This document shows, in pieces, positions 3,360-59,763 of a stretch of 64,000 bases of DNA. The notes under the pieces are model-generated. The model did not search any database, was not told where the DNA came from, and saw only the letters and a program-made list of their open reading frames with translations. A program made the position numbers and the translations under genes. Location of the stretch: the IMG/VR virus record IMGVR_UViG_3300010344_001170, positions 1 through 64,000 of that record; one strand, 5' to 3'. Origin of the DNA: a virus (Duplodnaviria > Caudoviricetes). The stretch's first letter is position 1. The number at the start of each line of letters is the position of its first letter.

Positions 3360-3495
3360 AAAGGAAAAGCAACAACTTAAAGATGAAATGATTGTTTTGG
3401 AAAAGCTGCTACTACTCCGAACACTCGATAATGGCCATAAGCTTTTTAAAAAAATCAAAACTGATGATGTGGAATTTATAATATCCAAAAATTGA
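3331..3495 (+). CDS. small hypothetical protein (not in ORF track; start 3331 or 3352)
   Basis: MKTKQQVMSKKEKQQLKDEMIVLEKLLLLRTLD...SKN*; fills the gap, and its TGA overlaps the TTG start of the next gene. Confidence 0.55.
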   Translation: MKTKQQVMSKKEKQQLKDEMIVLEKLLLLRTLDNGHKLFKKIKTDDVEFIISKN

Positions 3496-4064
3496 CATCT
3501 ATTACAGACATATTGAAGCCCAAATCCAAAGATGAATTAACTGATGCTGTTAAATCCATGCATCCATTTCAATTTGTTAATAAATTTCGAAAATGTGATG
3601 TGAAAGGAATGAAATTAGGATTTAAAAAGAGAATCGTATATTTCTTTGCCGTATATTATATTAAATATTTCTCAAAAATTTATTGGCCTATATGGGGAAC
3701 TTGGATTGTTTTGATGATAGGTACTTGGATATGGAAAGACATAGCGATATTAAATTTTATTGAAGATTTTTTTAATTGGATTATTATAGGTTCATTGTTA
3801 CCCACAATGATTTCAGGAATATTAAATATTTATATAGTTCGTTGGAATGAAAAACATGATAGGCAATCTCAGGCAAATCAAATTAATGACATTGTCAATC
3901 ATATTCAGGAACAAATTGAACACAGATTATTAATCGAACAAGAAAGACAAAGAGTTCAAGATCAGGCTGATGAAATACGTAGACAAATAGAACAACACGA
4001 AAGAGAATTACGTTTACGGCAACAGCAATTAGATTTATTAAGAGGAAATTTAAGAAATCTATAA
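3492..4064 (+). CDS. LKPK-motif membrane/coiled-coil protein
   Basis: N-terminus TDILKPKSKDEL; two hydrophobic segments; Q/R/E coiled-coil tail. Confidence 0.75.
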   Translation: MTSITDILKPKSKDELTDAVKSMHPFQFVNKFRKCDVKGMKLGFKKRIVYFFAVYYIKYFSKIYWPIWGTWIVLMIGTWIWKDIAILNFIEDFFNWIIIGSLLPTMISGILNIYIVRWNEKHDRQSQANQINDIVNHIQEQIEHRLLIEQERQRVQDQADEIRRQIEQHERELRLRQQQLDLLRGNLRNL

Positions 4065-4092
4065 AAACTTTATATCTTGGTTCATATAAAAT
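4064..4092 (+). promoter_or_regulatory. putative middle promoter AAAACY-N15-YATAVAA
   Basis: AAAACT-15nt-TATAAAAT upstream of the DNA polymerase gene. Confidence 0.55.
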
Positions 4093-4105
4093 ATATTAAA
4101 AAATT

Positions 4106-5293
4106 ATGTCGCCATTTAAATTCGAACTGGCCAAGATAGATCCGTATGAATGTTCAATTGAAGAACTTGAAAAAGAAATTTCTAGATTAAAAGCTTTAAA
4201 GGAAGAATACTTCAATCTTGAACAATCTATTAAGATTTTTATTAACTCTGTTTACGGAGCGTGTGCATCACCGTTTTTTGTTGGATATAATATACACGTT
4301 GCTGAAGCAGTAACTCTTCAGGGACAAGATTTAATAAAATATGCCAATAGAGTTTTGGATGATTATTTTATAAATCAATGGCATAAAGATACAGAACTTC
4401 ATCAAAAATTAGGATTAACATACGTGAATCCAATTCAAGAAAAAACTTTAGTTGTTTATAATGATACAGATTCAACGTATGTAACATTTGATCCGTTACT
4501 TAAATCATGTGATGCCCCAACGGATAGAGATGGTATCATTGATTTTATTCTTAAATTAAAAGAATTAAGATTAAATGATTATCTTGGAACAAAATTTGAT
4601 GAATACGCTAAAGAACGAAATACAAAAGACCTTCAAAATCTAGAACTCGAAAAGATTTCATATAGTGCCTTAATGTTGGCCAAAAAGAAGTATATTCTTG
4701 ACATAGCTTGGAAGGACCCAGGAGTTCGCTATGACCCCCAAAAGAAAGTTACGCCAACAGGTGTAGAAATTGTTCAAGGTTCCACTCCAAAATTTGCCAG
4801 AAAGGTATTAAAAGACATGCTTAATGTTCTTTTTGAAAAAGGAAAATCATTAGAATATGGGCAAGTCGTTAAAAAGCTAAAGGAATATAAAGAACAATTT
4901 CTTCTTCAAGACCCAGATGATATTTCTAAAACGATGTCGATAGGTGATTATGAGAAATACGTTTTAGAAGATCGTAAAGAATTAAAGATTGGTGATAAAT
5001 GCCCAATTAATGTTAGAGCAGCTGCTTTATATAATCATACATTGTTTAATACAAAATGGAAGAGCAAATATAATTTGATAAAAACCGGTGATAAAATAAA
5101 ATTCTATTATTCAAAAGGAGAAAATGATATTTTTGGATTTTTACCAGGAGATTATCCATATGAATTTGCACCAGCTGTAGATTATGATCGTCAGTTTGAA
5201 AAAATTATTGTAGAACCGTTTAACAGATTCATTGAACCATTAGGATTTAATCCAATACCAGGAAACTTAATATATGCCAAAAGCTTATTCTAA
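4106..5293 (+). CDS. family B DNA polymerase, C-terminal half (gp43B-like)
   Basis: Motif B KIFINSVYG, motif C YNDTDS, KKKY, thumb; lacks the exonuclease domain and motif A. Confidence 0.9.
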   Translation: MSPFKFELAKIDPYECSIEELEKEISRLKALKEEYFNLEQSIKIFINSVYGACASPFFVGYNIHVAEAVTLQGQDLIKYANRVLDDYFINQWHKDTELHQKLGLTYVNPIQEKTLVVYNDTDSTYVTFDPLLKSCDAPTDRDGIIDFILKLKELRLNDYLGTKFDEYAKERNTKDLQNLELEKISYSALMLAKKKYILDIAWKDPGVRYDPQKKVTPTGVEIVQGSTPKFARKVLKDMLNVLFEKGKSLEYGQVVKKLKEYKEQFLLQDPDDISKTMSIGDYEKYVLEDRKELKIGDKCPINVRAAALYNHTLFNTKWKSKYNLIKTGDKIKFYYSKGENDIFGFLPGDYPYEFAPAVDYDRQFEKIIVEPFNRFIEPLGFNPIPGNLIYAKSLF

Positions 5294-5504
5294 TATAAAT
5301 CCATCTGTAGTACAAAGAATGTGGGAAACTAAACATGAATTAGATTTTGTTAGAACCCAAATTAATAAACTTACATCTTGGAATGGAACCGATACGGAAG
5401 AAGTTTTTGAAGTTGTTGACGACATTCATAGATTGCAGAAACTTGAACAAGAATTAGTTTCATATAGAATGACAATAAGACCTTGGAATTACGCATATGT
5501 CTAA
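5274..5504 (+). CDS. hypothetical protein
   Basis: ORF in operon. Confidence 0.7.
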   Translation: MPKAYSNINPSVVQRMWETKHELDFVRTQINKLTSWNGTDTEEVFEVVDDIHRLQKLEQELVSYRMTIRPWNYAYV

Positions 5505-5892
5505 GATTGACAACATATTAAAACCAAAAACAAAATCACAAATAGAGCATTCAATTTGTGAAGAATACGGCATTGAAGTTTCTTCAAAAAAAGAAATCAA
5601 AAAGGTGATGAATTTATTAAAAATGTTAGAGATAATTCATACCGATGTAGAAGATAAAGTTACATGTTCTAGTTTTTCGTTTGAAGAAGTGCCTAGAGAA
5701 GATGTTCAAGTTGAAGTTCATCATTCATTTGAAATAGATGGCGAGAATTATCAATTTGAAATCGAAGGAATAAGAGAGATAAAAACAATATTACATAGTC
5801 ATACGATCCATTTAATACACCCAATATGGGATTGGAACGAAATTTATAAACAAATAATTGAAGAAATGGTTTTAAGGGCAGACGTTCAATAG
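5497..5892 (+). CDS. LKPK-motif hypothetical protein
   Basis: N-terminus IDNILKPKTKSQI. Confidence 0.75.
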   Translation: MSKIDNILKPKTKSQIEHSICEEYGIEVSSKKEIKKVMNLLKMLEIIHTDVEDKVTCSSFSFEEVPREDVQVEVHHSFEIDGENYQFEIEGIREIKTILHSHTIHLIHPIWDWNEIYKQIIEEMVLRADVQ

Positions 5893-6158
5893 CAGTAGAA
5901 ACGAGAAGAGGACCTGGGGATTTTGTAATAGGAAACAAAAAAACTATAAAAAGAATTTCGAAACACCTTACAGGCTTTTTAACACACATTAAAATTATTG
6001 AAGACAATATGTTTTCAAATGATGTACTTTTGATTGGAAGAAAAACACAAATGATGGATAGAGGTCTTCATTTAGTTAAAAATAAGAGATTTTATAATAT
6101 ACATGATGCTGGTGATTTAAATAAGTTTTATATTTGTCTAAATTTATTTGATAAATGA
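5862..6158 (+). other. open frame without canonical 5' start (possible ATA start at 5889 or -1 extension of the upstream gene)
   Basis: 98 sense codons filling the gap exactly; its TGA overlaps the ATG of 6155. Confidence 0.4.
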
Positions 6159-7135: not shown

Positions 7136-7498
7136 ATGGCCTCAATAGACAATGTTTTAAAACCAAAATCACAAGAAGAAATCGATGATCTTGAAAGAAG
7201 AGGATTTCGTAAAGATGGTGGTAAATGGAAATTTAGAATAGATATTTCTCCATTAATTAAAGCATTTGAAGAAGATGATGATACAGAAGCTTTTAAACAA
7301 GGAATTGTAGATTTACTTCAAGAAAAATTTGAAGATATTGGAATTTATGCTGGAGATGATGAACAATCGAATTTCCAAAATATCATTGATGAATTCCAAA
7401 TGCTAGATCCAAGTCCAGATCCTGATGAAGTTGATCATGTTATGGAAATGCTTTATGACTGGGCTGATCAAAATGATGTATGGATTGATTCCTTCTAA
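7136..7498 (+). CDS. LKPK-motif acidic protein
   Basis: N-terminus IDNVLKPKSQEEI. Confidence 0.8.
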   Translation: MASIDNVLKPKSQEEIDDLERRGFRKDGGKWKFRIDISPLIKAFEEDDDTEAFKQGIVDLLQEKFEDIGIYAGDDEQSNFQNIIDEFQMLDPSPDPDEVDHVMEMLYDWADQNDVWIDSF

Positions 7499-7512: not shown

Positions 7513-7812
7513 ATGAAGAAATTTGTTCACGAATCTTTAACAGATGTTTTAAAACCTAAACCTAAAGAAGAACTAGCCGATATTACTACCTCAGTAATAA
7601 ATCGAGCTAATAACGAATTTCAATCTATTGAGTATAGTATTAAAGATTTAAAAAAGTCTAAACGCAACATACCTCAAGAAGTGTGGTTAGGAGATTATCA
7701 ACAAACATACGACAGACTATTAGCGGCATTTTATGATTTACCTGATTATTTCCAACCTCAATTTGTAGATATATTTGATGATTTGCATGTTAAACTTTCT
7801 CGATTAATATGA
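7513..7812 (+). CDS. VxES/LKPK leader protein
   Basis: MKKFVHESLTDVLKPKPKEEL. Confidence 0.8.
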   Translation: MKKFVHESLTDVLKPKPKEELADITTSVINRANNEFQSIEYSIKDLKKSKRNIPQEVWLGDYQQTYDRLLAAFYDLPDYFQPQFVDIFDDLHVKLSRLI

Positions 7813-9587: not shown

Positions 9588-9832
9588 TGCAGACCTCAAA
9601 AGATTTGGCTTTTAAATCATTTTGTGATGGGTTTAAAATGAAAGCTTATTGGAAAAATTATAGAGCCAAATTATCTGACAATAAAAATGAGGATGAACAA
9701 ATAAAAGAATTTCTTCAAGATCATTTTGAACATTGGTGGTCTACATGGTATAACGGAAACGAACATCGAGAATGTTTTCAATCAAGACAAAGCGTTTTTA
9801 TAGATGGAAAGCGTTACATTTCAGCAGAATAG
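9581..9832 (+). CDS. hypothetical protein
   Basis: ORF in operon. Confidence 0.65.
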   Translation: MVMQTSKDLAFKSFCDGFKMKAYWKNYRAKLSDNKNEDEQIKEFLQDHFEHWWSTWYNGNEHRECFQSRQSVFIDGKRYISAE

Positions 9833-10388
9833 CGGAAAGATAATTATTAGTGGATTATTTTTGCCATTTAGTGATCAACCAAATGGCAACAATCGTATTT
9901 ATAATAGCGATAGTATCTCTGATAAAGTCTTAGAAGAATTTAAAAAAGATATTAAAGAACGTAATGCTTTAGGAGAAAATTTTATATATCATCATGACTT
10001 GGATTTTGTTCCTTCGGAAATCCTTCTAACAAATGTTTCTCATATAATTAATAAAGTAGAAAAAACTGAAAAGGGATTAATTGGTGAAATTGAATTATTA
10101 GCTACTCCACAGGGAAATTTGGTAAAAGAATTATTAGACAAAGATTTAGTTCAACAAATGCCTCTTTGTGTAAGGCCACGATGTAGTGGGTCAGTTAATG
10201 AAGATAAAACAGTTACAATTGAAAGGATTTTTAGTTTTGATCTACTCAGTTCATATGACGACGCATTTAATCCTGATAGTTATCGAAACAGAAGATATAA
10301 ATTATCAAGAAATAAAAATAATAGGTATGAATTATCTGAAAATAAAAACATCAGATATAATTTATCTGAAAATAAAGAAGAAGCTTAA
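9804..10388 (+). CDS. prohead protease (gp21)-like protein, catalytic Ser motif apparently substituted
   Basis: NGNNRIY, NVSHII, IGEIELLATPQGNLVKELL match the gp21 fold; VRPRCSG replaces VSSRGxG. Confidence 0.7.
   Translation: MESVTFQQNSGKIIISGLFLPFSDQPNGNNRIYNSDSISDKVLEEFKKDIKERNALGENFIYHHDLDFVPSEILLTNVSHIINKVEKTEKGLIGEIELLATPQGNLVKELLDKDLVQQMPLCVRPRCSGSVNEDKTVTIERIFSFDLLSSYDDAFNPDSYRNRRYKLSRNKNNRYELSENKNIRYNLSENKEEA
10293..10382 (+). repeat. 3 x 30-bp tandem repeat encoding RY(K/E/N)LS(R/E)NKxx
   Basis: Units at 10293, 10323 and 10353. Confidence 0.85.
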
Positions 10389-13571: not shown

Positions 13572-15240
13572 ATGGCGTAATATAGGACCTTATGGAAATA
13601 AACTCCAAGAATTAGAATTTTCTGATAGCGGAGGTTTATGGATGGTTACTGGCAAAAATGGTAATGGTAAATCTTTTGTTGTTAATCTTCCAAAGATTCT
13701 TTATTATGGAAGATTAGATAAGTTTAAGAAAGATGACATTGCTAATCGATTAAATAAACACGGATGGATTCGTGGAGAAATTCAAGTAAATCCTACGACT
13801 ACAGTACAAATTGAGAGATGGTTGTCTCCTCAAGATTTAATTGTTTATAAAGATGCAGGTGATGGTCCTGAAGATATTGGAAAGGCTGTTTCAAAGAACT
13901 ATCAAGATTATATTGATATGGAAGTCACTGGCTTGCCTTACCACATTTTCTCGAACATTATATCATTAAGTGTTAATGATTTTAAATCTTTTATTTCAAT
14001 GACCCCAGGTGATAAGCGAATCATAATAGATAAGCTTTTCGCAATGGAGGTTATAAACCAAATGAACAAACTGGTTAAAGAGGATCTTCGTAAAATTAAA
14101 ACTGACATAACATTATTTGATAGAGAAATCCAATCCCTTAAAAATACTATCAAAACTGCATCTAAAGAACTTGAAGAATTAAAAACAAAAATCAATCAGG
14201 ATAATACCGAACAAATAAAACAAGTAGTTCAAAAAATGGCTGAATACAAGCCCAAATTAGAGGATGCCTATAAAAAATTAGAAGAGTATACAAAGAAGGA
14301 AACAGATATTAAAAAAGCATATGACATTTTTAAGAATCAAAAATCTAATTTAAAGAATGATATTAAAAATCTAAAGAAACAAATAGATTTGTATGATCAA
14401 GATAAATGTCCAACGTGTGCAACACCATTCTCTGAACAAAGATTTGAATTATTAAAAGAAGATCTTCATTCCAAATTTACAGCTAAAAATGAAGAATTGG
14501 AATTACTTGTAAAAACTGAAGATCAGTATACTTCTTCTTTAGAAAAAGTTCAAGAAGGCTTAAGAAGAATCAATACGTTTATCATTCAAATAAAAACTGC
14601 TTTTCAAGCTCTTCAAAAAGAATTAGACAAACTAAAAAAAGAGAAACCAAAAGAATTTTCTTCAATTCAAAATATCATATCTAAAAATACTATTGAAGTA
14701 CAAACTAAAGAAACCGAGAAAGTTACATTAGACGAGGATTTTAAATATCGTTCTGTACTTGAACAATTGTACTCCGATGATGGTGTTAAAAAGAAAGTTC
14801 TTGAAAGTTATTTACCAACTCTAAATAAAGAGATTGAATATACTCTTCATGAATTACACTTTCCTTATAGACTTCGTTTCAATAATGATTTTAATCCATG
14901 CATTGAACATTTAGGAATTGAAATAAATGTTGAAACTTTATCAACCGGAGAAAAGAAAAGGGTTGACTTAGCTGTTTTAATTTCAATCATTAGAATGTTA
15001 AAACGTAAATACCCTTCTTTAAATATTTTCATGCTTGATGAGGTGTTGTCTTCAATAGATGGTGATGGCATTTATGATATAATTGGGCTGCTTCAGAAGA
15101 CCTCCAAGGAGCTCCTAATGAATATTTTCATCATTAATCATGCTCCACTACCCATAGAGTATTTTGATTATAAAATTTCTATTGAAAAAAGAGATGGATT
15201 TAGTGATTTAACTGTTGAAACTTTATCAACAGACAATTAG
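13552..15240 (+). CDS. sbcC: SbcC/Rad50/gp46-like ATPase
   Basis: GKNGNGKS, zinc hook CPTC, signature LSTGEKKR, Walker B MLDE. Confidence 0.93.
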   Translation: MKLKKIEWRNIGPYGNKLQELEFSDSGGLWMVTGKNGNGKSFVVNLPKILYYGRLDKFKKDDIANRLNKHGWIRGEIQVNPTTTVQIERWLSPQDLIVYKDAGDGPEDIGKAVSKNYQDYIDMEVTGLPYHIFSNIISLSVNDFKSFISMTPGDKRIIIDKLFAMEVINQMNKLVKEDLRKIKTDITLFDREIQSLKNTIKTASKELEELKTKINQDNTEQIKQVVQKMAEYKPKLEDAYKKLEEYTKKETDIKKAYDIFKNQKSNLKNDIKNLKKQIDLYDQDKCPTCATPFSEQRFELLKEDLHSKFTAKNEELELLVKTEDQYTSSLEKVQEGLRRINTFIIQIKTAFQALQKELDKLKKEKPKEFSSIQNIISKNTIEVQTKETEKVTLDEDFKYRSVLEQLYSDDGVKKKVLESYLPTLNKEIEYTLHELHFPYRLRFNNDFNPCIEHLGIEINVETLSTGEKKRVDLAVLISIIRMLKRKYPSLNIFMLDEVLSSIDGDGIYDIIGLLQKTSKELLMNIFIINHAPLPIEYFDYKISIEKRDGFSDLTVETLSTDN

Positions 15241-15623
15241 AACCAGCCTTTATAATATTGGGTGCCTGGTTGCCAACTTTTGTATTTAGATAGGGATTTC
15301 ATACCTTCGATATATCCTTCAATTGTTTCTTGGGCATCTTTGATACTTTTGTCCCATAATTCCAAATTATCCATTAATTTACTAAAAGCTTGAACAACAT
15401 CAAAAAGTTTTTGTTCATCTTTACCTTCAAAGCTTACTTCTAAATCTTTTAATAATGGAGCATAAAAATTGTTAGTAACTAAAACATCTAATAATTTTTG
15501 TGCTTTTTCATCAAATTCCACATATATTTTTAAAATAGTTGTTTTAAACTTATTTCTAATTTCATCACCAGAAACAGGTTTTAAAATACTTTCTACAGAT
15601 TCATTCGTAAACTTAGCTCTCAT
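15237..15623 (-). CDS. VxES/LKPK leader protein
   Basis: MRAKFTNESVESILKPVSGDEI; own late-type promoter at 15630-15645. Confidence 0.8.
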   Translation of the reverse strand: MRAKFTNESVESILKPVSGDEIRNKFKTTILKIYVEFDEKAQKLLDVLVTNNFYAPLLKDLEVSFEGKDEQKLFDVVQAFSKLMDNLELWDKSIKDAQETIEGYIEGMKSLSKYKSWQPGTQYYKGWF

Positions 15624-15675: not shown

Positions 15676-15957
15676 ATGCGTGCCAAACGTATAAATGAAA
15701 ATGTTTTTAAACCAAAAAATGTTAGTGATATAATTCATAATCACATAATAGAAAAGGTTTATGATGATTTAAGAGAACCCCTTTATCAAATTTTTAAGCG
15801 TTTGGATGAGCAAAAACTTCTTTTTCCAAATATTAAAGAGGTTAAGAAAAAATTTGATGAAGCAGCAGATCTATTGTTTGAAATGGTCATAGACGATATA
15901 TCAGTTTATAATGAGCAAGACGAACAAGAAGAATTACTAAGGCAATCTGAAGAATAA
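15676..15957 (+). CDS. VxE/LKPK leader protein
   Basis: MRAKRINENVFKPKNVSDI. Confidence 0.8.
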   Translation: MRAKRINENVFKPKNVSDIIHNHIIEKVYDDLREPLYQIFKRLDEQKLLFPNIKEVKKKFDEAADLLFEMVIDDISVYNEQDEQEELLRQSEE

Positions 15958-15971: not shown

Positions 15972-16553
15972 ATGGGAAAATATTTAGAAGATTTTAAAAA
16001 TCGTTTTAAAGATAAGGGCATGGATGAAGAAGAAATTCTTGATTTGATTGAAATCCACGGTCCTCATAAAGCTATTTCCATAATTCGTAAAAAATATCCG
16101 CAAGCTACTGATCAAGACATTGATGATCTTATCGGAAGATATGCAACAACCCCATATAAATTAAAAGAAAATCAAAAGATGAAAGCAAGATTCGTAAAAG
16201 AAAGTCTTGAACAGGATCAAGATATTTATGACGAAGAAAATGGTGAAGAAGTAGAAGTTACTGAGTCTCCGTTTGATAAAGTTGAAATGACAGAAGATCC
16301 TGAAGAAGATGATGATTTAGTCATTCAAGATGAATTTGAAGCAGCATTAAATAATGAATTAAAAGTTCCTGAATATGCAAGAAGAACAGTTTCTTTTAAA
16401 GTTAAAGGAGAAAGAGGAATTGTAGATGCTGTTCCTATGGCAAAAATGAAAGACGGCGCATTCCTTATGAAAGTCGGAAATTCATATCGTAAATTTAAAA
16501 TGGATGACATTGTTGAAGAGTCATTTAAGGCTAAAACAATTTTTAATAAATGA
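15972..16553 (+). CDS. acidic composite protein with internal MKARFVKES leader
   Basis: Internal leader copy at residue ~70; late motif GAATAAATAAATAAAA at 15952. Confidence 0.75.
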   Translation: MGKYLEDFKNRFKDKGMDEEEILDLIEIHGPHKAISIIRKKYPQATDQDIDDLIGRYATTPYKLKENQKMKARFVKESLEQDQDIYDEENGEEVEVTESPFDKVEMTEDPEEDDDLVIQDEFEAALNNELKVPEYARRTVSFKVKGERGIVDAVPMAKMKDGAFLMKVGNSYRKFKMDDIVEESFKAKTIFNK

Positions 16554-16852
16554 AATTTGTTAACGAAGATTTAGAAGATGTTTTAAAACCTAAATCTGAA
16601 GAAGATTTAGAATCTGCATTTCAAGAGCGTCTTTGGGCATTTGAGGAAATGGATCCTAAAGAAATAGTTGATGCTATTGCTGATGAATTTGGTGTTGGAA
16701 CTCTAGATGTTGCAGTTCATATTCTTAATAACATTGAACATGACGAACTTCATGAATCTGTTAAGTTAGTTTATAATGATTATTTAAGAGAAAATCGAAA
16801 AATTGATATGGGTCATTTGGGACTTCCAAAAGGAAAATTGACTTTCAAATAA
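16550..16852 (+). CDS. VxE/LKPK leader protein
   Basis: MKFVNEDLEDVLKPKSEEDL. Confidence 0.8.
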   Translation: MKFVNEDLEDVLKPKSEEDLESAFQERLWAFEEMDPKEIVDAIADEFGVGTLDVAVHILNNIEHDELHESVKLVYNDYLRENRKIDMGHLGLPKGKLTFK

Positions 16853-17319
16853 TGTTTGTTGCCGAATCTATAGAAGATGTTTTAAAACCTAAGGATCGAG
16901 ATGTCATAAATCGAGAACTTGATCAAGCTACTGATTCATTTATTAATGAAGCTACTCTAAAGGATTTTCTCAAATCCTTTAATAATATCAAAGTGTGGCA
17001 AGGAGGATTGAATTTTAATAATGGATTTATGCGAAAATTAAAAAAGGGAGATCAATATTTCTTTCTAATGGATCGCGATTCTTTGTTTAATGTTGTAGAT
17101 GATTTAGCAAGTTCATTTAAATTTGATGAACCTTTAATGTCCGATATAGATAAGGCTATGAATGATCATGACTATGATGCGTCCTATAAATTCCCTGAAT
17201 TTAACCATTTTTGGACACATACCCTTCATACAAATCAAAATATAACTAGAGAAAATTATGATTATGTGGTTAATCGAGTATTAGAAAAAGTTGCCCAGAA
17301 ATTTAATGTAGAATATTAA
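16852..17319 (+). CDS. VxES/LKPK leader protein
   Basis: MFVAESIEDVLKPKDRDVI. Confidence 0.8.
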   Translation: MFVAESIEDVLKPKDRDVINRELDQATDSFINEATLKDFLKSFNNIKVWQGGLNFNNGFMRKLKKGDQYFFLMDRDSLFNVVDDLASSFKFDEPLMSDIDKAMNDHDYDASYKFPEFNHFWTHTLHTNQNITRENYDYVVNRVLEKVAQKFNVEY

Positions 17320-17360: not shown

Positions 17361-19139
17361 ATGGGAATGCTCGATATCTTAAAACCAAAATCCAAATCGG
17401 AATTAAATTCGGTTATTGATGATTATATAAAAGACTTTGAAGACACTTATATGCCTGCTGGATTTCAATGGCGTAAAGGTCAAAAAGAAGTTGTCGAGCA
17501 AATAGTTCAAACTTATTTAGAGAAAAAATATAAAGTAGTAATACTTGATGCCCCGGTTGGAAGTGGGAAATCACTTATCGCTATGGCGGTATCTCATATT
17601 TTAAACTCTACTAAAAAACGTGGATATATTTTAACATCCGAAATTTCTCTTCAAGACCAATATCAAGACGACATAAATAGATTTAAATTGCCATGGGGTT
17701 TGGTAAAGGGGGTTGATCATTATAAATGTACTGATAATGATGAAAAGCATTCATTAGGAACATGCAAGATTCGAAACAAAAATCCCCGAAAAATGTTATG
17801 TTATAATGAATGCCCTTATTTTTCCGCAAGAGATATGGCTGTTAACGCTGATACAGCAGTTTTAAATTATAATTATTGGCTTATCATGCAGAATTTTGTG
17901 AATTCTCATGAGAACGAGAACGGTACAATGTCGACACCATTATTTCCACCAAGAGATTTTACAATATGTGATGAAGGACATAAAGTTCTTGATATTGTTC
18001 AAAACCATTATTCACCCCGATTTACAAAAGGAACAACAGAAAAGTTAAAAAAACTTTCTGATTTCTTTTGGAATCATAAAGTTAAAGATCACACTTTAGA
18101 TGTGGATGTTGTTGCAAGCGCAATAGAACAAATGTGGGAAGAAGAAGATCAGGATTACTTACATGGGCATTTATGTTCTATTGAAAAAGCTCTCAAATCT
18201 TTCTTAATGTCAATTGAAAAATTAAAAGATAGGGTTGAAGCTGAATACAAAAATAAAAAACCTCCGATAGAATGGAGAGAAGCTTTATTTCTTTCTGACT
18301 GGGTTAAGGATATTCATTGTAAAGTCGAGGATTATAATTACATTATTCGCCAAACTACAACAAGGAATTTAGTAAAAAATCCTACTGTTGATGAATTAGT
18401 ATTTAACTGTTTGCAAGAAAGCTTTTTGATGAATAGATTTTTTCATCAATTTACTGGATTTACTGTTTTAATGAGTGCAACATTTGCAGATCCTTTAGAG
18501 TACATGAAAACTATAAACATTAAAGGAGCTAAGTACATTAAAATGGATAACTTATTTCCATTTGAAAAATCCCCAATTTATTATTATCCAAAAAGAAGAA
18601 TGACATACAAGGAAATTGATAATAATAAAGAATGGCTTTACAAGAAAATAAATGAAATCATATCGAATCATGCTGGTGAAAGTGGAATTATTCACTCTGC
18701 TTCTTATGATTTGACAATGAAAATAAGAGATAATCTAACACCTGAAAATAGAAAAAGAGTTTACGTTTATGAAGGGACAGAAGAAAAACGAGCAATGCTC
18801 GACATGATGAAACTTCAAAAAGGCAAAATAATAATGGGACCTTCCATATTAGAGGGGTTAGATTTAAAAGATGACTTTTCTCGTTTTCAAATATTTGCCA
18901 AAGTCCCATATCTATCATTAAGTGATCGCTTTGTAAAAACGAAATTGGCAATAAATCCTGCCTGGTATAGATGGAAAGCCATTGTAAGTATACTTCAGGG
19001 AACAGGCCGTAGTGTTCGTAATGAAGATGACTGGGCAGTAACTTATATTCTTGATGGCTCATTAGGTGATTTGATTCATAACAATAGACGTTCATTTCCG
19101 GCTGAATTTTTACGGAGGATCGTCGTTGTCAATGAATAA
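17361..19139 (+). CDS. dinG: DinG/YoaA/XPD-family SF2 helicase with LKPK motif
   Basis: Q motif RKGQ, APVGSGKS, LQDQY, Cys cluster, DEGH, MSAT, EGLDLKDD, QGTGRSVRNEDD; N-terminus DILKPKSKSEL; ATG at 17361 preferred. Confidence 0.88.
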   Translation: MGMLDILKPKSKSELNSVIDDYIKDFEDTYMPAGFQWRKGQKEVVEQIVQTYLEKKYKVVILDAPVGSGKSLIAMAVSHILNSTKKRGYILTSEISLQDQYQDDINRFKLPWGLVKGVDHYKCTDNDEKHSLGTCKIRNKNPRKMLCYNECPYFSARDMAVNADTAVLNYNYWLIMQNFVNSHENENGTMSTPLFPPRDFTICDEGHKVLDIVQNHYSPRFTKGTTEKLKKLSDFFWNHKVKDHTLDVDVVASAIEQMWEEEDQDYLHGHLCSIEKALKSFLMSIEKLKDRVEAEYKNKKPPIEWREALFLSDWVKDIHCKVEDYNYIIRQTTTRNLVKNPTVDELVFNCLQESFLMNRFFHQFTGFTVLMSATFADPLEYMKTINIKGAKYIKMDNLFPFEKSPIYYYPKRRMTYKEIDNNKEWLYKKINEIISNHAGESGIIHSASYDLTMKIRDNLTPENRKRVYVYEGTEEKRAMLDMMKLQKGKIIMGPSILEGLDLKDDFSRFQIFAKVPYLSLSDRFVKTKLAINPAWYRWKAIVSILQGTGRSVRNEDDWAVTYILDGSLGDLIHNNRRSFPAEFLRRIVVVNE

Positions 19140-19158: not shown

Positions 19159-19635
19159 ATGAGAGCCAAATCCGTAAATGAAGGATATGAAGACTTTGGT
19201 CTTTCTGCTGATGAAGCAAAAAAACTAAAGAAAACTGATAATCCATTTTATAAGTTAGAACAAATGGTTAGAGGATTTATGTCTGAAGACAAAATTTATT
19301 TTGATGACATGGTTCGATCATTTGATAAAACGAAACAACAATTTCTTTATAGTATTATTACTGATTATATAAGAAAAACATTAGATATTGATTTTCAAAA
19401 TATAGGAAATCCTGAAGGCCAATATGATTGGCAAAATGCCTATAAAGCACAATATAAGATCTATGATTTATATTTAGAAAAGAGTCATTCAGGATATAGT
19501 TATTATGTAAAAATGTATAAAAGAGCAAGAGAAAGAAATGAGAGAAATTTAGTCGCCGAAAGTACGTATTCCAAATCTCTTCACAGCCTTGCAAAGAATA
19601 TTCAAAAAATGCTTAAAGAACATGCCAAAGTTTGA
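19159..19635 (+). CDS. VxE leader protein
   Basis: MRAKSVNEG. Confidence 0.8.
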   Translation: MRAKSVNEGYEDFGLSADEAKKLKKTDNPFYKLEQMVRGFMSEDKIYFDDMVRSFDKTKQQFLYSIITDYIRKTLDIDFQNIGNPEGQYDWQNAYKAQYKIYDLYLEKSHSGYSYYVKMYKRARERNERNLVAESTYSKSLHSLAKNIQKMLKEHAKV

Positions 19636-26397: not shown

Positions 26398-26748
26398 ATG
26401 GGAACACACCACGTTAAAAATAAGGATTTAAGAGAGGCATTGATACTTTCCAAAGAAAAAGATGAATTGACAAAGGAAACATTGGACATGTTTATTTTAA
26501 TGGCTAAGAAATTTTCAACCAACTTTACATACATATATGAAGAAGATAAAGAAGATTGCATCTCTTTTGCTATAATGGATTGTTATCAATATTGGAGAGG
26601 GTATGATCCCGAAAAATCTGCAAATGCATTCGCATATATCACGCAAATAATTAAAAATGGTTTCGCTAAAGGATGGCGAAAATTATATGGCAATATGCCA
26701 AAATCCAAAAAGGTTTCTGTTTCTCATAATAACATCTATAGTTTATAA
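26398..26748 (+). CDS. gp55: late-transcription sigma factor (T4 gp55-like)
   Basis: HVKNKDL, EDCISFA, YDPEKSANAFAYITQIIKNGF resemble gp55 YVNNKEL / NPHAYITQ. Confidence 0.8.
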   Translation: MGTHHVKNKDLREALILSKEKDELTKETLDMFILMAKKFSTNFTYIYEEDKEDCISFAIMDCYQYWRGYDPEKSANAFAYITQIIKNGFAKGWRKLYGNMPKSKKVSVSHNNIYSL

Positions 26749-44903: not shown

Positions 44904-45821
44904 ATGCGTGCGCGTTTAGTAAATGAATCGTACAATTTAGGTTTTAAAAAATCCTATCAATATCTCCAAGAGGTAATTAAGAGATTAATGCCTCTTGAGA
45001 GATATTTCGCTTATAAGAATTATCAAGATAGAACAGATAATTTAGATGATTCGACGTATGGACTTAGATTAATTGTTAGAACAGAAGACGATTTATCACA
45101 AGAAATAAAAGATTTACTAGAAGGATTTGACGATAATCTTGATTTAAATAAAGTTGACAGAGATGAATCTCGATCTCCTCATTATGAACAACACGGACTT
45201 TATGATTGGAGAATTCCTAAGAAAAAAAATTATTGGGATTTTGTGAAAGAAAATCCAAAAATGTTACAGAGTGATGCTGATACCATGACCCATGATGTAG
45301 TGTTAACTTTAATTGACATGGCTGGCGGGGTAGGAAGTATGTTAGCTAACTATAATTATTATAGCTTAAAAGACTTCTTAAACAGCATGAGAGATTTCAT
45401 GGATAAAAAAGAATTTAAAGATTATGTAAAAAGAGTCCATGAAAAATTTCCATATCTTGGTGATAACAAAAGAAAATTCTTAGGAAAAACAAATGAAAGC
45501 ATACGAAATCCAAATCCTGTTTTACGTCCAAAATCTAAAGAAGAAATAGAAAAAGAATTTGGAAATCAATACGCTGGATTTAAAGAAGCAAGAGAAGGAT
45601 TTGAACCTTTTGTAGTTAAAGCTTGGATGAGAGATCCAGGATACGGTTATCAATATGTTCTTTTGTTTTTAATAAAATTTACAGAGTTAAGAGAATATGG
45701 TCTTTGCATTTATGACTATGAGAAAGAAGAATTTGTACAAGAACCTGGAACTCTTGATGATTATGGATTAACATATGAAGAGTTCATGATTAAATACGAA
45801 GACTATTTAAATTTTATTTAA
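44904..45821 (+). CDS. composite protein with N-terminal and internal leader copies
   Basis: MRARLVNES; internal TNESIRNPNPVLRPKSKEEI. Confidence 0.8.
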   Translation: MRARLVNESYNLGFKKSYQYLQEVIKRLMPLERYFAYKNYQDRTDNLDDSTYGLRLIVRTEDDLSQEIKDLLEGFDDNLDLNKVDRDESRSPHYEQHGLYDWRIPKKKNYWDFVKENPKMLQSDADTMTHDVVLTLIDMAGGVGSMLANYNYYSLKDFLNSMRDFMDKKEFKDYVKRVHEKFPYLGDNKRKFLGKTNESIRNPNPVLRPKSKEEIEKEFGNQYAGFKEAREGFEPFVVKAWMRDPGYGYQYVLLFLIKFTELREYGLCIYDYEKEEFVQEPGTLDDYGLTYEEFMIKYEDYLNFI

Positions 45822-46501: not shown

Positions 46502-47002
46502 ATGAAAAAATTTAATTATTTTTATAAAACTACAAACATCATAAATGAAAAATTTTATTATGGTGTTCATTCTTCTGACAAAGATAACGATAATTATCTA
46601 GGATCAGGAAAATTATTATTAAAGGCTATCAAAAAATATGGCCGTGAAAATTTTAAAAGAGAAATCATCCAATTTTTTGATTCTTTTGACGATGCCTTAA
46701 ATTTTGAAAAACAATTTGTTATCGAAGATATAATAACAAATCCATTATGTTATAATATTAACATTGGAGGTAAAGGAGGGTCAAAAAGAGGAAGACAATC
46801 TCCAATGAAAGGACGAATACATTCTGAAGAAACAAAAACAAAAATTAGTAACTCTGAAAAGGGAAAGTCTAAAAATAAAGGAATAACTCGCTCAATAGAA
46901 ACCCGGCAAAAAATTAGCGAGAATAATGGTATGAAAAACCGAGGTTATCTTGTTTCTGGTTCTCGTAATGGAATGTATAAGAAAAAATACAATATAATTT
47001 AG
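46502..47002 (+). mobile_element. free-standing GIY-YIG homing endonuclease
   Basis: YFYKTTNIINEKFYYG, YLGSG, CYNINIGG, NUMOD3 HSEETKTKIS. Confidence 0.88.
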
Positions 47003-47066: not shown

Positions 47067-47273
47067 ATGCGCGCTAAATTTGTCTTTGAAAGCCAACATA
47101 TATTAAATAAGATCGATCTTATCAATGAAATACTTCAACAATTCGATGAAGAAATTCGTGATGAATTGAAAAAGGATTTAATGGCTATGTCCAAAGATGA
47201 ATTTGATGAATGGGTTAAGTACGCAGGGTACAATAAAATGGGAAAATATTGGACAGCATCAACTGTCTATTAA
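47067..47273 (+). CDS. VxES leader protein
   Basis: MRAKFVFES. Confidence 0.75.
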   Translation: MRAKFVFESQHILNKIDLINEILQQFDEEIRDELKKDLMAMSKDEFDEWVKYAGYNKMGKYWTASTVY

Positions 47274-47305: not shown

Positions 47306-47854
47306 ATGAAAGCCGGAAGTTTTAATATTCATGAATATTTAGGAAAACTTTATGATAAAGTAAATGAAGAAGATTTAACTAAGTCTTTATCATTAAACGA
47401 AGAAGAAAAGGCGGGAAATTTACCTGATGATAATGGTATGATTATACCTGAAGAAGGTAAAAAGGCTTATGACTGGCTTAAGAAAGAATACCATAAAGGT
47501 AAGACAGAAGTAAAAGTAGAAATGTCATATCATGAATTCAAACCTGGCTACCATCTTGATACTAATTTGAAATCTGTAAATGATTTTAAACCTGGTTTAT
47601 ATGGTGACATTAAGACCAAAGACACAGAAGGTGGAAAGAGAGAAAAAGCTGTGCCATTTCCTGAAACAAAATTCCCTGGGGGCGAAACTAAAGCACCTGA
47701 AGAAGGTAAAAAAGAAAACGAATCTTCTGAAAAGAAATCAACGGGGATAACTGTTGAAGCTAAACCAAAAGTAGAAGCTAAAGCTAAGAAAGAAGATCAA
47801 GAAATTGGAAAAGAAGTAAAAGAAGATACCAAGGATAAAGTTGTTAAAAAATAA
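47306..47854 (+). CDS. hypothetical late protein, K/E-rich tail
   Basis: Late motif upstream; KVNEE and LNEE sites. Confidence 0.78.
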   Translation: MKAGSFNIHEYLGKLYDKVNEEDLTKSLSLNEEEKAGNLPDDNGMIIPEEGKKAYDWLKKEYHKGKTEVKVEMSYHEFKPGYHLDTNLKSVNDFKPGLYGDIKTKDTEGGKREKAVPFPETKFPGGETKAPEEGKKENESSEKKSTGITVEAKPKVEAKAKKEDQEIGKEVKEDTKDKVVKK

Positions 47855-48249
47855 TGTTAGTTAGAGAAACAGTATATCCTATTATAGGTCATTTCAATAA
47901 AGCTACAGTAAAGGGACGAGCTAGAGAGTTACCAACAGTATTTCAAACATTAGCTCGAAGATTTAAAAACATTCCTGGCACTGATAGCTTTTATGTTGAT
48001 GATATAGAAGAAATGGTTAAAGTTCTTCGAAGACATGATGACAAATGGGCAGGAAGACATGCAGTACCTTATGTAACCCCAGGATTTGTCCCCTATTTTA
48101 AAAAGAAATCATATATCGAAGAAGATGGTAAAAAACTTTGGACTAACAATCCATATAAATTATCACCAGAAGGATTTGACCAATATCACATAAGCGTACA
48201 TATGGTTCTTGATAAAGAAGACGATTTTATAGGTTGGATTTGTAATTAG
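47854..48249 (+). CDS. VxE leader hypothetical protein
   Basis: MLVRET. Confidence 0.72.
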   Translation: MLVRETVYPIIGHFNKATVKGRARELPTVFQTLARRFKNIPGTDSFYVDDIEEMVKVLRRHDDKWAGRHAVPYVTPGFVPYFKKKSYIEEDGKKLWTNNPYKLSPEGFDQYHISVHMVLDKEDDFIGWICN

Positions 48250-50713: not shown

Positions 50714-51197
50714 AATACATCCGTTCAATCCAAAAAAATGGGCGGTTTGGATGGTCATAAAAGACTTCCAAAATTATGCCGCATGGATCAAAGTTATAGA
50801 TAGAGAAAAGGATGATCCTCAATCTACTTATAATAAGTATGACATGCGACATAACTTTTTTTATACAGTTTATTTTCCTATAAGATTACCAGAGGAAGAT
50901 AGAGCATTGCCTGACAGTATCAAACGATTAAGAGTAGTTGAAACTCTTGGGCCTATTCATCGTTATATTGATGAGGATTTACAATTTGCGGAATACATTG
51001 TTCCAGAATTCAATCAATTCTATGATGAAAATAATGAGCCAACTTTAGCTTATGGTATTGTCTACAGATTCGCATTTAAAAGACTATCATTAAAATGGGT
51101 AGTTTCAAGAACAGTTATTATAGGATTATTGACATGGGCATTAATAAAATTTCCTATAATTAGTACAGTAGCAGAATGGATTAAAAATGTTTTTTAA
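50706..51197 (+). CDS. hypothetical protein with C-terminal TM
   Basis: ATG at 50706 overlaps the sigma gene stop region. Confidence 0.75.
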   Translation: MSKIHPFNPKKWAVWMVIKDFQNYAAWIKVIDREKDDPQSTYNKYDMRHNFFYTVYFPIRLPEEDRALPDSIKRLRVVETLGPIHRYIDEDLQFAEYIVPEFNQFYDENNEPTLAYGIVYRFAFKRLSLKWVVSRTVIIGLLTWALIKFPIISTVAEWIKNVF

Positions 51198-51723
51198 CGC
51201 CCAATCCTATTTTAATTTTTGTTTCCTCAGAAAGTTTTTTACCTTTATGTGAGTTACTAATTTTGTCTCTTGTTTCTTTTGAAACTATATGTCCGTTTAA
51301 AGAATTTTTTAATTTTTTCTTTGTCTTATTAGAAAGTTTTCTTCCTATTCGGCTAATTGTCATATTTTTTATATGTTCTTCAGATAATGAGCGTCCAGAT
51401 AATGTACGACTAATTTTTTTCTTTGTTTCATCAGAAATACCATTTGATATTTGATGACCACCTTTTGGACTAATATTATATCCGTTTGGTTCTAATGTAT
51501 CAAATTCTTTAATATATCTTTCTTGAGCATTAAAAGCTTCTTGTTTTGTATTAAACTCTTCAAGAACTTGTTTACAAAAATTTTTTGAACCATATTTTTT
51601 AATAGCATTATTTATAGCTAATCCACTCCCTAAATAATTATCATTTAAATTAGTTGTTGAATGGTCTCCTATATATCGTTTACCATTAATTAGATTAGTT
51701 GTCATATAAACAATATGATACAT
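51181..51723 (-). mobile_element. free-standing GIY-YIG homing endonuclease (antisense insertion)
   Basis: IVYMTTNLINGKRYIGDHST, YLGSG, NGYNISPKGG, NUMOD3 repeats; close paralogue of 27425. Confidence 0.88.
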
Positions 51724-56656: not shown

Positions 56657-56666
56657 TACTCTCATA

Positions 56667-58331
56667 ATGGCTATAGATTTATTTAATAATCCATCAAACG
56701 ATTATATTTATCCAGGACTTTCCCCTTGCCCAGGTGTAGGAGACGACCAATATCTAGTATGGACTGAGAATGGATTAGCAATCATAAAAGGGAGTGATGT
56801 AATCAGTGAAATTGGATTCAGTGATTTACAAGTTCCTGTTAATTCTTTTAGCAAGCAACAATTGATACTTGGATCCGGCGAAGTTGTTTTTATTCCTGGA
56901 TTAACAAAAGGATTATGTAATAAGGCATTAGGATTCTTTTTACCATCATTAGATAGTTCTGATTTAGATTTAAATTCATATTTTTTAGGTATTGATTTTT
57001 CCATAAATTATTATAAGAATTTTAGTTATACATCAACACATATAGATGTATCAGCTAATTATGAACAAAATTTAGGAATTGCTGATGCGTTAAATATCAA
57101 ATTCGATGAATTAGGAATTAAAGTATCATCATCTTATGATCCAAGCATTCTTTGCTTTGCAGGAACTACAGCTGGTTATGAATATTTTATTACGAATGCA
57201 ACTTTAAGAGTTTATGATACTTCAGAAGCATATGGTTCTCCATTCCCAATTGGAGGTAATGCTCAAACATATGATTTAATTGAAGACCCATCTGCTTATA
57301 TTCCTGCATTTAAATATCCTAATACAGCAATGCAAGGAATTGCTCTTAAGGGAATTTATCCAAACGAACAAGCAGAATGTGATAAATGGTTCTATTTACA
57401 CCATGTTACGGATTATGTAATCGTATTTGATCCATATAATGTAAATTATGATACAGAAGTTTCTACTAATTTAGCATTATCATATCCTGTAAAATATCCA
57501 GGAATTCCTACTATTGCTGATTATCTTACAACAGTTGATCTTTATGGAATAACTATTGATGGATCAGATATGGCTGATGTTAGTATAGCAAATTCAATAA
57601 TAACAAATTCAAATATTGAAACATCGAATATTCGTGATTGTTCAATTGACTTATGTAATCTAACAGAAGTTTATGTAGCTAACACAGAAATTGAACAAAG
57701 CAGTATCGATTTAGGAGAATTAACTAATAGTATCGTAAATAATGGTTCATCTGTTCAGAACAGTATATTAATTAATTCTTGGATTAATGTTTACAAACTA
57801 GTCGTAAATCCATCATCAGGAGAAATAATTTGGGTTACTGACGATGCGTCATTTGTAAATGTCGTTGTTAATGGAGGAGAAATTTGGGATTCATCTATTA
57901 ATAATGCAACTCTTTATGATGTTTCATTGTATAATTGCTGGATTGAAGATTCTTCTGTATCAGGATGTACATTTCACAATTGTGCATTCGATTCAAGAAC
58001 TATTGTAGAAGATACAGTAGACATTATGATGGATCCATCCATAGCTTGTGAATTTGATATTGTTCAAGATACTTCAATATTCTATCTAAGACGTAGAAGA
58101 AAAATTGAAATTGGAATGAGCGGATGTAGTGTTGAAGACTTAATGAGTGCTGGAGATTATTTGAATTTAGTAACAAATAGAGGATGGTGGAAAAAAGTTG
58201 GAGATATTTACATTTGGATTTCATCTCCAGATTGTGAAGGTGATTGTTTAAACAAAAACTTAATAGAAGGATTTTATGTTTATAATCCGCATGAATTTAC
58301 AATGCAAATCGAATATATGATTATAGTATGA
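56667..58331 (+). CDS. putative virion protein with S/N/I/D beta-solenoid repeats
   Basis: Late motif upstream; NSIITNSNIETSNIRDCSI-type 5-residue periodicity. Confidence 0.7.
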   Translation: MAIDLFNNPSNDYIYPGLSPCPGVGDDQYLVWTENGLAIIKGSDVISEIGFSDLQVPVNSFSKQQLILGSGEVVFIPGLTKGLCNKALGFFLPSLDSSDLDLNSYFLGIDFSINYYKNFSYTSTHIDVSANYEQNLGIADALNIKFDELGIKVSSSYDPSILCFAGTTAGYEYFITNATLRVYDTSEAYGSPFPIGGNAQTYDLIEDPSAYIPAFKYPNTAMQGIALKGIYPNEQAECDKWFYLHHVTDYVIVFDPYNVNYDTEVSTNLALSYPVKYPGIPTIADYLTTVDLYGITIDGSDMADVSIANSIITNSNIETSNIRDCSIDLCNLTEVYVANTEIEQSSIDLGELTNSIVNNGSSVQNSILINSWINVYKLVVNPSSGEIIWVTDDASFVNVVVNGGEIWDSSINNATLYDVSLYNCWIEDSSVSGCTFHNCAFDSRTIVEDTVDIMMDPSIACEFDIVQDTSIFYLRRRRKIEIGMSGCSVEDLMSAGDYLNLVTNRGWWKKVGDIYIWISSPDCEGDCLNKNLIEGFYVYNPHEFTMQIEYMIIV

Positions 58332-59464
58332 GAGCACAATTAGTTAAAGAAAATATTCAAACTATTTTAGTTCCTAAAACTCCTGAAGAACTAGGAGAAG
58401 CAAAGGAAAAAGTGCAATTAGTTATGTATCGTATTGAGAAATCATTCAACGAACGATACCCAGAAAATCCTATAACTGATTTTAATTATTTCTTTGACGG
58501 AGGAGGAATTAATTTAACTATTGAGTTTAGAGATCCAATTAAAGATATGAATTTAATAGAAGACATTTTATATCCCTATCCACAAATAAGTAACGAAGTA
58601 GAAGTATCTGATGAATTTCCATATCAACCACAATCAGAAGAAGAGTTTCCACCTGAAATAGAATATGTTGAAACAAATATCGTAAATGTTGTGTTTCCTT
58701 TAAGTATTGTTAATGAAAACTGGGGAGGTGGAGGAGTTGGATATGCAGTTTGGGGTGGTGGTACAGGAAGAAATTTTGGCAACCCTTCAATGAGAGGAGG
58801 ATTTGCTGGAAGAGGATTTGGCTTTGGCGGATCTATGAATTTATCCGGTGGTCCTAACCTAATGTATACTTATGCTGTAAAACCATTAAATACAGTTCTG
58901 CAACAACCTGCAACACCACAGGATGATGAACAATATATTCATGTTGGTAGTAAAATAAAAGGAAAAATATTAAATACAAACAAAGATATTGAAGGACAAA
59001 TTCTTAGAATAGAAGAAGATGAAGATAACAATATAAAATGGTATGTTGTTCTTGATAAAGAAGGAAGAAAAAGAAAAGTAGATCCAACAAGTGCTTATCT
59101 AGATGAACCAGAACAAATTATAGATCCAAATGTAATGGATATAGCTAATGAGAGTTTTTATCCTACGTTATATGAGAGAATGACACATGATGAAGCGGCG
59201 ACGGACGTTGAAGAAAAAGTTAAAAGAAGCAAAAAACTTCCTGCAGAAATTAAAGAAAAGATTTATCCTTTAATTGTAAAAGGAGAAACTGAATACAGAG
59301 ATGGTAAAGTGTTTAGACTTCGTTATCCAAAATCTAAAGGATGCGATTTAGGTGCCGATAAAAATGGATTCTTTGTATTCACACATCGTGCTAGATCAAA
59401 ATCAAAAGAAGATATAGATAAAATTCCTGAAAAGGACATTAAATTTATAAAAAGCACAGGATGA
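58328..59464 (+). CDS. composite VxE/LxPK leader protein with Gly-rich linker and SH3-like module
   Basis: MRAQLVKENIQTILVPKTPEEL; VNENWGGGG; ANES. Confidence 0.8.
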   Translation: MRAQLVKENIQTILVPKTPEELGEAKEKVQLVMYRIEKSFNERYPENPITDFNYFFDGGGINLTIEFRDPIKDMNLIEDILYPYPQISNEVEVSDEFPYQPQSEEEFPPEIEYVETNIVNVVFPLSIVNENWGGGGVGYAVWGGGTGRNFGNPSMRGGFAGRGFGFGGSMNLSGGPNLMYTYAVKPLNTVLQQPATPQDDEQYIHVGSKIKGKILNTNKDIEGQILRIEEDEDNNIKWYVVLDKEGRKRKVDPTSAYLDEPEQIIDPNVMDIANESFYPTLYERMTHDEAATDVEEKVKRSKKLPAEIKEKIYPLIVKGETEYRDGKVFRLRYPKSKGCDLGADKNGFFVFTHRARSKSKEDIDKIPEKDIKFIKSTG

Positions 59465-59763
59465 AATTAGTAAAAGAAAGTTTGAATGAACAAATGGTAT
59501 ATAATTTTCATGAAATTCCATCAGACGAAGAACGCGTAAACAAAAGATTACGTGATCTTTTAGTAGATATTATAATGAATGAGCGAGGTGTTTCTGAAAA
59601 ATCTTTTTCAGAAGTGGACCAGATAATACAAGAGGTGAAAACTTTTTGTGATAGTAAGCTGATAATATATACAAAAGCAAGATTGTATGATCAGGCAAAG
59701 AAACGATTACAATTTTTGGCCGAAAAAATTTATGAAAGATATTTTAACTTAAAATCAAAATAA
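59461..59763 (+). CDS. VxES leader protein
   Basis: MKLVKESLNE. Confidence 0.78.
   Translation: MKLVKESLNEQMVYNFHEIPSDEERVNKRLRDLLVDIIMNERGVSEKSFSEVDQIIQEVKTFCDSKLIIYTKARLYDQAKKRLQFLAEKIYERYFNLKSK

Follow-up and report, generated by a model that had tools for sequence, protein, structure and literature searches.

In a 79-kb phage contig from IMG/VR (IMGVR_UViG_3300010344_001170, hereafter G000), the first 64 kb, here called the window, carry a peptide tag of ~22 residues that recurs at the start of otherwise unrelated genes. Its aligned consensus, M(R/K)AK(F/L)(V/I)xE-S(L/I/V)xD(V/I)LKPKSxEE(I/L), consists of a leader ending in Glu (part A) and, contiguous with it, a box containing LKPKSxEE (part B). 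About one gene in five is tagged. In the explanation favoured here, for which belief and doubt are about evenly matched, the tag would be a scaled-up, two-part variant of the T4 capsid-targeting sequence (CTS), in which the leader is cleavable, the repeated sites divide cargo polyproteins and a clade-specific box is retained after the cut. The tagged proteins are most likely particle cargo, because part A resembles the T4 head signal, which loads a protein and is then cut off; packaging, cleavage and any role of part B are predictions from sequence.

A tag shared by unrelated genes

Between 20 and 24 of the ~95 genes in the window are headed by the tag, and simple patterns find it on 20 of the 110 genes of the whole contig and on 64 of the 330 genes of G001, a related 260-kb contig (64 % complete) that is syntenic with G000 at 80–88 % DNA identity. 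An earlier note on this DNA had claimed a shared N-terminal tag on more than 20 genes. Each position listed in that note translates to the peptide given for it, and the shared tag is real and more widespread than was claimed, with an additional part-A start (MKARFVKESLEQ) at 16179; it is, however, not confined to N-termini, as internal copies are present. The division into two parts holds in that A and B are separable, because genes with A only and genes with B only both exist, yet together they form one contiguous motif in fixed register, an interval of exactly 5 residues separating the Glu from LKPK in 23 of 30 A+B tags. Once Met is removed, 10 of the 23 B-only genes begin about 5 residues before LKPK. 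Leaders end in (V/I/L/T)-x-E-(S/A/G/N/D), the residue after Glu (P1′ of the predicted cut) being Ser in 34 of 67. The degenerate part-A starts at 47854 (MLVRET) and at 40707 on the minus strand (MILVCES) are both kept in the orthologues of the relative. The tagged genes of the window are listed below, with the evidence for each in brackets; scores in bits are those of the tag profile.

3492–4064, plus strand: B only, 190 aa, body of unknown family; the TTG start overlaps the upstream stop (32 bits)
5497–5892, plus strand: B only, frameshifted, the frame running on to ~6158 (profile match)
7136–7498, plus strand: B only, late-type promoter motif upstream (translation, profile)
7513–7812, plus strand: A+B, 99 aa (38 bits)
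15237–15623, minus strand: A+B, late-type motif upstream (translation, profile)
15676–15957, plus strand: A+B with shortened linker, late-type motif upstream (translation, profile)
16179–16553, plus strand: A-only start inside the open reading frame (ORF) 15972–16553, a separate gene in G001 (orthologue comparison)
16550–16852, plus strand: A+B, closest to the consensus (44 bits)
16852–17319, plus strand: A+B, 155 aa (translation, profile)
17361–19139, plus strand: B only on a DinG-like helicase (Pfam, profile)
19159–19635, plus strand: A only, late-type motif upstream (translation)
19996–21204, plus strand: A+B on an ankyrin-repeat protein, the true start being 19996 and not 19954 (Pfam, profile)
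26772–27242, plus strand: A only on a cupin protein, late-type motif upstream (Pfam)
29658–29993, plus strand: A+B, 111 aa (39.5 bits)
30680–31072, plus strand: A+B, shortened, late-type motif upstream (profile)
31069–31506, plus strand: A only, MIVYESLDQVL (translation, part-A pattern)
32663–33145, minus strand: ankyrin protein with a weak B-like start (17 bits)
34269–34700, plus strand: B box after a different N-terminal piece, MEDEFKQNIRTLLKPKSKEEF (profile)
36670–40707, minus strand: A variant (MILVCES) on a 1345-aa helicase with an Eco57I-like methyltransferase, late-type motif upstream (Pfam)
44904–45821, plus strand: A-only start and a complete internal copy, TNES..VLRPKSKEEI, at 45489–45545 (profile)
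47067–47273, plus strand: A only, late-type motif upstream (translation)
47854–48249, plus strand: A variant, MLVRET (translation, orthologue)
58328–59464, plus strand: A+B variant, MRAQLVKENIQTILVPKTPEEL, 378 aa (profile)
59461–59763, plus strand: A only, MKLVKESLNEQ (translation, part-A pattern)

The earlier note had proposed a profile scan of the genome and its relatives and a comparison with shuffled proteomes. Against the 79-kb contig the tag profile finds 15 places at at least 14 bits, every one in the frame of a called gene, and in 13 of them the match begins no later than residue 12 (binomial P 2e-15); 50 shuffled proteomes give no match at all. The part-A pattern starts 15 of 110 genes compared with 8 of 513 internal Met positions. 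In G001 the same threshold gives 49 matches, of which 18 are internal, often with two or three to an ORF.

That the bodies behind the tag are unrelated, as had been claimed, is borne out by BLASTP, which finds nothing in common besides the tag save in a few pairs. Pfam recognizes two ankyrin proteins, the cupin, the DinG-like helicase and the 1345-aa helicase-methyltransferase, and leaves the remainder unmatched. In the more distant relatives L014 and L019 the orthologues of the DinG-like helicase are without the tag. Isoelectric points gave no informative difference between tagged and untagged proteins. A word-index protein search returned only three orthologues of the 16550–16852 product, a look-up of that product in the ESM Atlas gave nothing usable, and for 20 large proteins of G001 the PHROG scans mostly found no match.

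The frameshifted gene at 5497–6158 is intact in four relatives, at 242–244 aa; the first 36 residues of this family are invariant and the remainder is 74–81 % identical. Over its last ~70 residues the family is similar to T4-type major capsid proteins, in their C-terminal region RRGxxNF...VGRKG (hhalign 72 %, E 3.5e-5). AlphaFold modelling of the 242-aa protein and four orthologues gave an unusable model (predicted local distance difference test score 33).

Within ORFs, ~22 internal copies have a residue profile equal to that of the N-terminal tags from P3 to P15′, with no conservation further upstream. Their consensus is (L/I/V)-x-E-(S/G)-(I/L)-x-D-(I/V)-L-K-P-K-S-x-E-E-I, with exactly P3, P1 and P1′ conserved around the predicted cut. 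The modules between copies in G001 are mostly unrelated to one another, apart from a few paralogous pairs. Fusions or splits at tag boundaries are also apparent: ORFs 15972–16553 and 44904–45821 each correspond to two ORFs in G001, the second of which starts with the tag.

Beyond these two contigs, a strict DNA pattern for D(V/I)LKPKSxEE is found, across the whole of IMG/VR, in only 41 stretches on ~25 contigs, compared with 11 single internal sites, about the chance level, in 596 Gb of prokaryote genomes. A profile built from 27 tags and run against 1.84 billion representative proteins matches 695 clusters at E ≤0.001 and 91 at ≤1e-10. The first copy is N-terminal in 136 of the best 150 clusters, and copies are spaced at a median of 136 residues. 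Whatever the mechanism, the motif is thus a sharp marker. When 142 tagged proteins were compared with Pfam, ankyrin repeats were the commonest recognizable cargo (43 proteins), followed by two GNAT acetyltransferases, the others being unmatched.

Selection on the tag acts on the protein and not on the DNA. It has been considered that the shared sequence is instead kept at the DNA or RNA level, as a mobile promoter-plus-leader cassette, an ORF-capturing recombination hotspot or an A-rich initiation region suiting Bacteroidota, which lack the Shine-Dalgarno sequence. Several tags do sit behind the same promoter motif, and tag copies use the same codon for a shared amino acid slightly more often than codon usage predicts (63 % versus 53 %). 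Against this, synonymous positions of the tag are freely variable, tag DNA is only 60–81 % identical between nearest neighbours, and internal copies, which initiate nothing, keep the peptide. Comparison of orthologues from G000 and G001 gives, over 296 codons of the tag, 52 synonymous and 44 nonsynonymous changes, and, over 4182 codons of the bodies, 875 and 1350; silent change is equally frequent in the two, whereas amino-acid change is halved in the tag (P 0.005). On these four grounds a recently spread DNA cassette and a translation-start signal were rejected. Many tagged genes, moreover, lie inside operons without that promoter motif. Conservation at the DNA level is largely refuted, and a very small chance indeed is left to it.

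Part A and the T4 head signal

In T4, the CTS is borne by IPI, IPII and IPIII, which are internal proteins, and by Alt, and is removed by the gp21 prohead protease. The T4 sequence MKTYQEFIAE brings into the head whatever protein it is fused to and is cleaved off once by the head protease (PMC8442874, PMC5694885) under an (L/I)xE rule (PMC5694885), and the T-even internal proteins are described as diverse defence proteins with only the leader in common (PMC3012670). The P3–P1 pattern of the internal copies described above matches the gp21 rule. The leader of the window shares only F-(V/I)-x-E with the T4 sequence, a peptide too short for a statistical test of homology, and bridging forms are found in relatives (MKYIKEYEEFILEA and MKRVKSYNEFIAES).

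Further intermediates occur in a sister clade typified by the huge phage LR756500, where the gene order is portal, S77 protease-scaffold and major capsid protein, the S77 enzymes beside the portal and capsid genes being active-looking. In nearly all of 80 sister-clade loci the capsid protein begins with ..(L/I)INE(A/S)EV, and the gene after it starts with MKRVKSYNEF(I/V)(A/N)ES, a bridging form. G016 (IMGVR_UViG_3300025030_000039), a 429-kb genome of this type that is 96 % complete and has both the S77 protease and the major capsid protein, the latter starting with ..LINE(A/S), begins 30–40 of its 611 genes with MK(Y/F)I(K/L/Q)xY(E/K)(E/D)F(L/I/V)xE(A/S/N); one instance, ..YSEFVNES, is comparable to the M(R/K)AKF(V/I)NE-S of the window. 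Judged by these patterns, the leader of the window appears to be the short end of a series of T4-CTS-like leaders. About ten of the proteins with CTS-like leaders in G016 (e.g. 1240–2013 and 274434–279744) also share a C-terminal tail, ..NADDFGFFDN, which would be a second shared end-tag on those proteins.

No such leader was found in the head region of Tenacibaculum phage PTm1, the nearest cultured annotated relative. The tag profile likewise has no match among sister-clade capsid N-termini, the best score being 7 bits in ~1 million residues; mimicry of the capsid delta domain by the tag was dropped on this account, the part-A-like LINE(A/S) excepted.

Three genes of the window are related to T4-type head assembly and late expression:

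9804–10388, plus strand: homologue of the S77/gp21 head maturation protease, among replication genes (phrog_207, 3e-13)
26398–26748, plus strand: gp55-like late sigma factor (phrog_234, 2e-15)
40789–42636, plus strand: T4-type portal protein, gp20 family (PF07230, 4e-54)

A late-type motif, (G/T)A(A/T)ATA(A/T)ATAAA(A)TAAA, contains a T4-like TATAAATA. At a distance of 8–12 nt it stands upstream of the start codons of eight tagged genes of the contig, of large virion genes and of the gene for the tail tube. The earlier observation that it precedes many tagged genes is confirmed: across G000 and G001 it stands before 21 of 90 genes with the tag and 33 of 350 without it (odds ratio 2.9, P 9e-4), and additional tagged genes lie downstream in motif-bearing operons. 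The gp55-like factor is consistent with T4-type late promoters, and from the motif we infer that it is active and that tagged genes are expressed late. The interpretation of part A in the earlier note, as a T4-type targeting leader with an (L/I/V)xE site, has gained comparative support from the CTS-like leaders, the capsid N-terminus, the P3–P1′ residues of internal copies, the late motif, the portal and the sigma factor.

Part B can be exchanged as a block. In L014, L015 and L017 (72–74 % portal identity), part A is kept and B is replaced by ES(I/V)NFERGxDPKx(A/S)MxIG, a box present on many genes and repeated four times in one 525-aa ORF (L014:16019–17596). A third variant, xNESVRDxMTPKSEEDI, heads up to 11 modules in ORFs of 1500–1600 aa, as in two adjacent ORFs of 1591 and 1499 aa (P0036 and P0045) with 10–11 copies each.

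Proposed delivery with the particle and its alternatives

In the explanation favoured here, the variable cargo genes of a huge phage related to T4 would carry the tag as an address in two parts. Part A, followed by S, G or A, would act as a short member of the T4 CTS family and dock the protein to the prohead scaffold core, after which a prohead protease of the gp21 type (S77) would cut behind the part-A Glu. Long ORFs would be cut at internal (L/I/V)-x-E-(S/G) sites into modules of ~100–170 aa and would represent cargo polyproteins. After cutting, or after removal of Met in B-only genes, all modules would have a nearly identical N-terminus. Part B lies behind the predicted cut, on the side that is kept, and would probably bind a common, clade-specific particle partner or direct co-ejection with the DNA; the 'docking hub' role proposed for LKPKSxEE in the earlier note is pure conjecture.

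The likeness to T4 extends over several features. A short N-terminal leader, with hydrophobic-x-Glu and then a small residue at its end, stands on unrelated, fast-evolving proteins largely of anti-defence type; the leaders of relatives are nearly identical in pattern (Y-E/Q-E-F-I-x-E-A); and the genome encodes a portal of T4 type, a late sigma factor and an S77-family protein and contains a TATAAATA-like late motif. Unlike in T4, where 4–5 genes have the leader, it heads ~20 % of genes here, is shorter (6–9 residues), recurs inside polyprotein-like ORFs and has a further conserved box behind it, in a position that T4 would retain; packaging and cleavage are predictions in the present system.

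Other particles load proteins by different means. Phage P1 DarB, a large helicase-methyltransferase, is a Dar antirestriction protein packaged in the head, and the tagged 1345-aa helicase-methyltransferase (36670–40707) is like it in domain content and would be sensible as co-injected cargo; Dar packaging, however, uses helper proteins and ~30 N-terminal residues, not a shared short tag. In the extracellular contractile injection systems known as Photorhabdus virulence cassettes (PVC) and antifeeding prophage (AFP), unrelated effectors are also singled out by an N-terminal peptide and loaded into a contractile particle, but the signals are ~50 disordered residues with no fixed sequence, loading is into the tube lumen and there is no cleavage motif. 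Many head-internal proteins of phiKZ-like phages (phiKZ, 201phi2-1 and SPN3US) are cut after Glu (S/A/G-x-E or A-x-E) by a T4-related protease (PMC5694885). A diverged protease paralogue and, as predicted here, multiple cuts within one protein are further points in common with that group (PMC5694885), whereas its propeptides are long (often >100 aa) and not a shared sequence tag, and its 8–19 substrates, compared with ~100 predicted here, are without a common prime-side box.

Several observations weigh against delivery with the particle. The product of 9804–10388, the only S77 homologue of the window, has Arg-Pro aligned to the Ser-Ser that holds the T4 catalytic Ser140 (VRPR for ISSR) but retains the region of the His motif; in the G001 orthologue the Ser replacement recurs and a frameshift follows residue 32. 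This protein is probably a non-catalytic paralogue, of the kind noted in SPN3US-like phages. The active protease and the capsid gene of the clade are absent from all fragments searched (G000, G001 and 14 others); the search for head genes used the Pfam S77 and Gp23 models, PTm1 and LR756500 proteins and a 10-sequence capsid profile, and returned only a weak match to the tagged 242-aa protein. Tagged genes are not clustered beside head genes; many lie in the replication module or, in G001 and L203, between baseplate and neck genes that lack the tag. The T4 CTS lies wholly on the removed side, so a conserved retained-side box is without precedent in T4. The ~100 packaged protein species implied per genome would be unusually many, and (L/I/V)xE(S/A/G) is not depleted in tagged bodies, which is a weak test.

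Some of the same facts can be accommodated if the motif, in its full length of 22 residues, stays uncleaved and serves as a short linear docking peptide (strand, KPK turn and capped helix) for one non-capsid partner, (L/I/V)xE(S/G) simply belonging to the surface that is bound. Candidates for such a partner are a hub protein of phage or host, a chaperone, an adaptor of an unfoldase, and the S77 paralogue without the Ser as a 'reader'; the conservation of a non-catalytic protease homologue in both genomes would suit the last of these. Strong conservation of B outside the removable leader, the existence of B-only genes and the scatter of tagged genes over replication and tail modules also fit, as does the block swap of B for NFERGxDPK in a sister lineage, which is expected from co-evolution with a partner. 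Nevertheless, part A resembles T4-CTS-like leaders that are found also on the capsid N-terminus of relatives, late promoters are enriched, A-only genes indicate that the first half works without B, and internal copies at regular module boundaries suit cutting better than binding. An uncleaved docking peptide, the main rival, is regarded as unlikely. Less likely still is a cytoplasmic, non-capsid maturation, likened to viral polyprotein or ribosomally synthesized and post-translationally modified peptide (RiPP)-like leader processing, in which a phage protease or a KPKS-x-EE-modifying enzyme would split precursors into effectors that are not packaged. ORFs with up to 10–11 tag-headed modules do resemble polyproteins, and S-x-E-E is reminiscent of the sites of acidophilic kinases and of the S/A/G-x-E rule that phiKZ-type proteases follow (PMC5694885). 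Most tags, though, are single and N-terminal, and removal of 8 residues in the cytoplasm would have no obvious purpose; the likeness to the T4 CTS and the link to late expression point to the prohead; and no candidate enzyme turned up beside tagged genes in Pfam and PHROG scans of the window, which did not include a systematic co-occurrence test.

Should delivery with the particle be correct, T4 head-loading of a few anti-defence proteins would have been scaled up to a plug-in system for about one-fifth of the gene set, equipped with polyprotein cassettes and a second address box. Dark-matter proteins by the hundred, ankyrin-type binders prominent among them, would be marked as injected effectors, and there would be a simple sequence rule for virion cargo in metagenomes as well as new short tags for packing foreign proteins. 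A more general statement is tentative, and regarded as rather unlikely: that huge T4-related phages of Bacteroidota use a two-layer delivery code, in which a cleavable CTS-like leader is combined with a retained clade-specific box (LKPKSxEE or NFERGxDPK) as a second address, serving docking in the particle or co-ejection, and in which cargo is encoded by single genes as well as by polyproteins of up to 11 modules that the prohead protease separates. Such polyproteins would be the first known as phage cargo, and the conserved Ser-less protease paralogue might read the tag.

Genome context and further observations

G000 is ~20 % complete by CheckV, which suggests a genome size near 400 kb, and has a G+C content of 31 %. 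By portal sequence, its closest named relatives are the Lak megaphages of Prevotella and LR756500 (40–44 % identity), and the host is on that account very probably a member of Bacteroidota. No cultured member of the tag-bearing clade was found. PHROG- and Pfam-type scans also identified a gp2-like DNA end protector, a further sigma factor, DnaB, SbcCD-like and RecA-like proteins, and proteins with C-terminal sorting domains of the type IX secretion system (T9SS).

Two beta-helix or pectate-lyase-like proteins are encoded at 59822–61720 and from 61720 onward, both on the plus strand. The first has a T9SS C-terminal sorting domain (PF18962), and the C-terminal end of the second is alike by BLASTP; phage genes therefore appear to use a secretion signal of the host. 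The family-B DNA polymerase is represented by a 395-aa ORF at 4106–5293 (plus strand) that aligns with profile positions 153–236 of 453 only, which suggests a split gene.

An orthologue of the 16550–16852 product (P0003) is filed at NCBI under a 'Candidatus Methanofastidiosa archaeon' metagenome-assembled genome, and is probably from a phage contig mis-binned into an archaeal genome. Five paralogues that are 36–47 % identical are located at 27425–28075 (plus strand), 46502–47002 (plus strand) and 51181–51723 (minus strand) in the window, and at 69018–69704 and 77636–78160 (both minus strand) in the rest of the contig, with more copies in G001. They start with the pattern M..(F/Y).(Y/F)VY.TTNL.NGK.YIG.HS and, by that pattern, look like GIY-YIG-type homing endonucleases spread over the genome.

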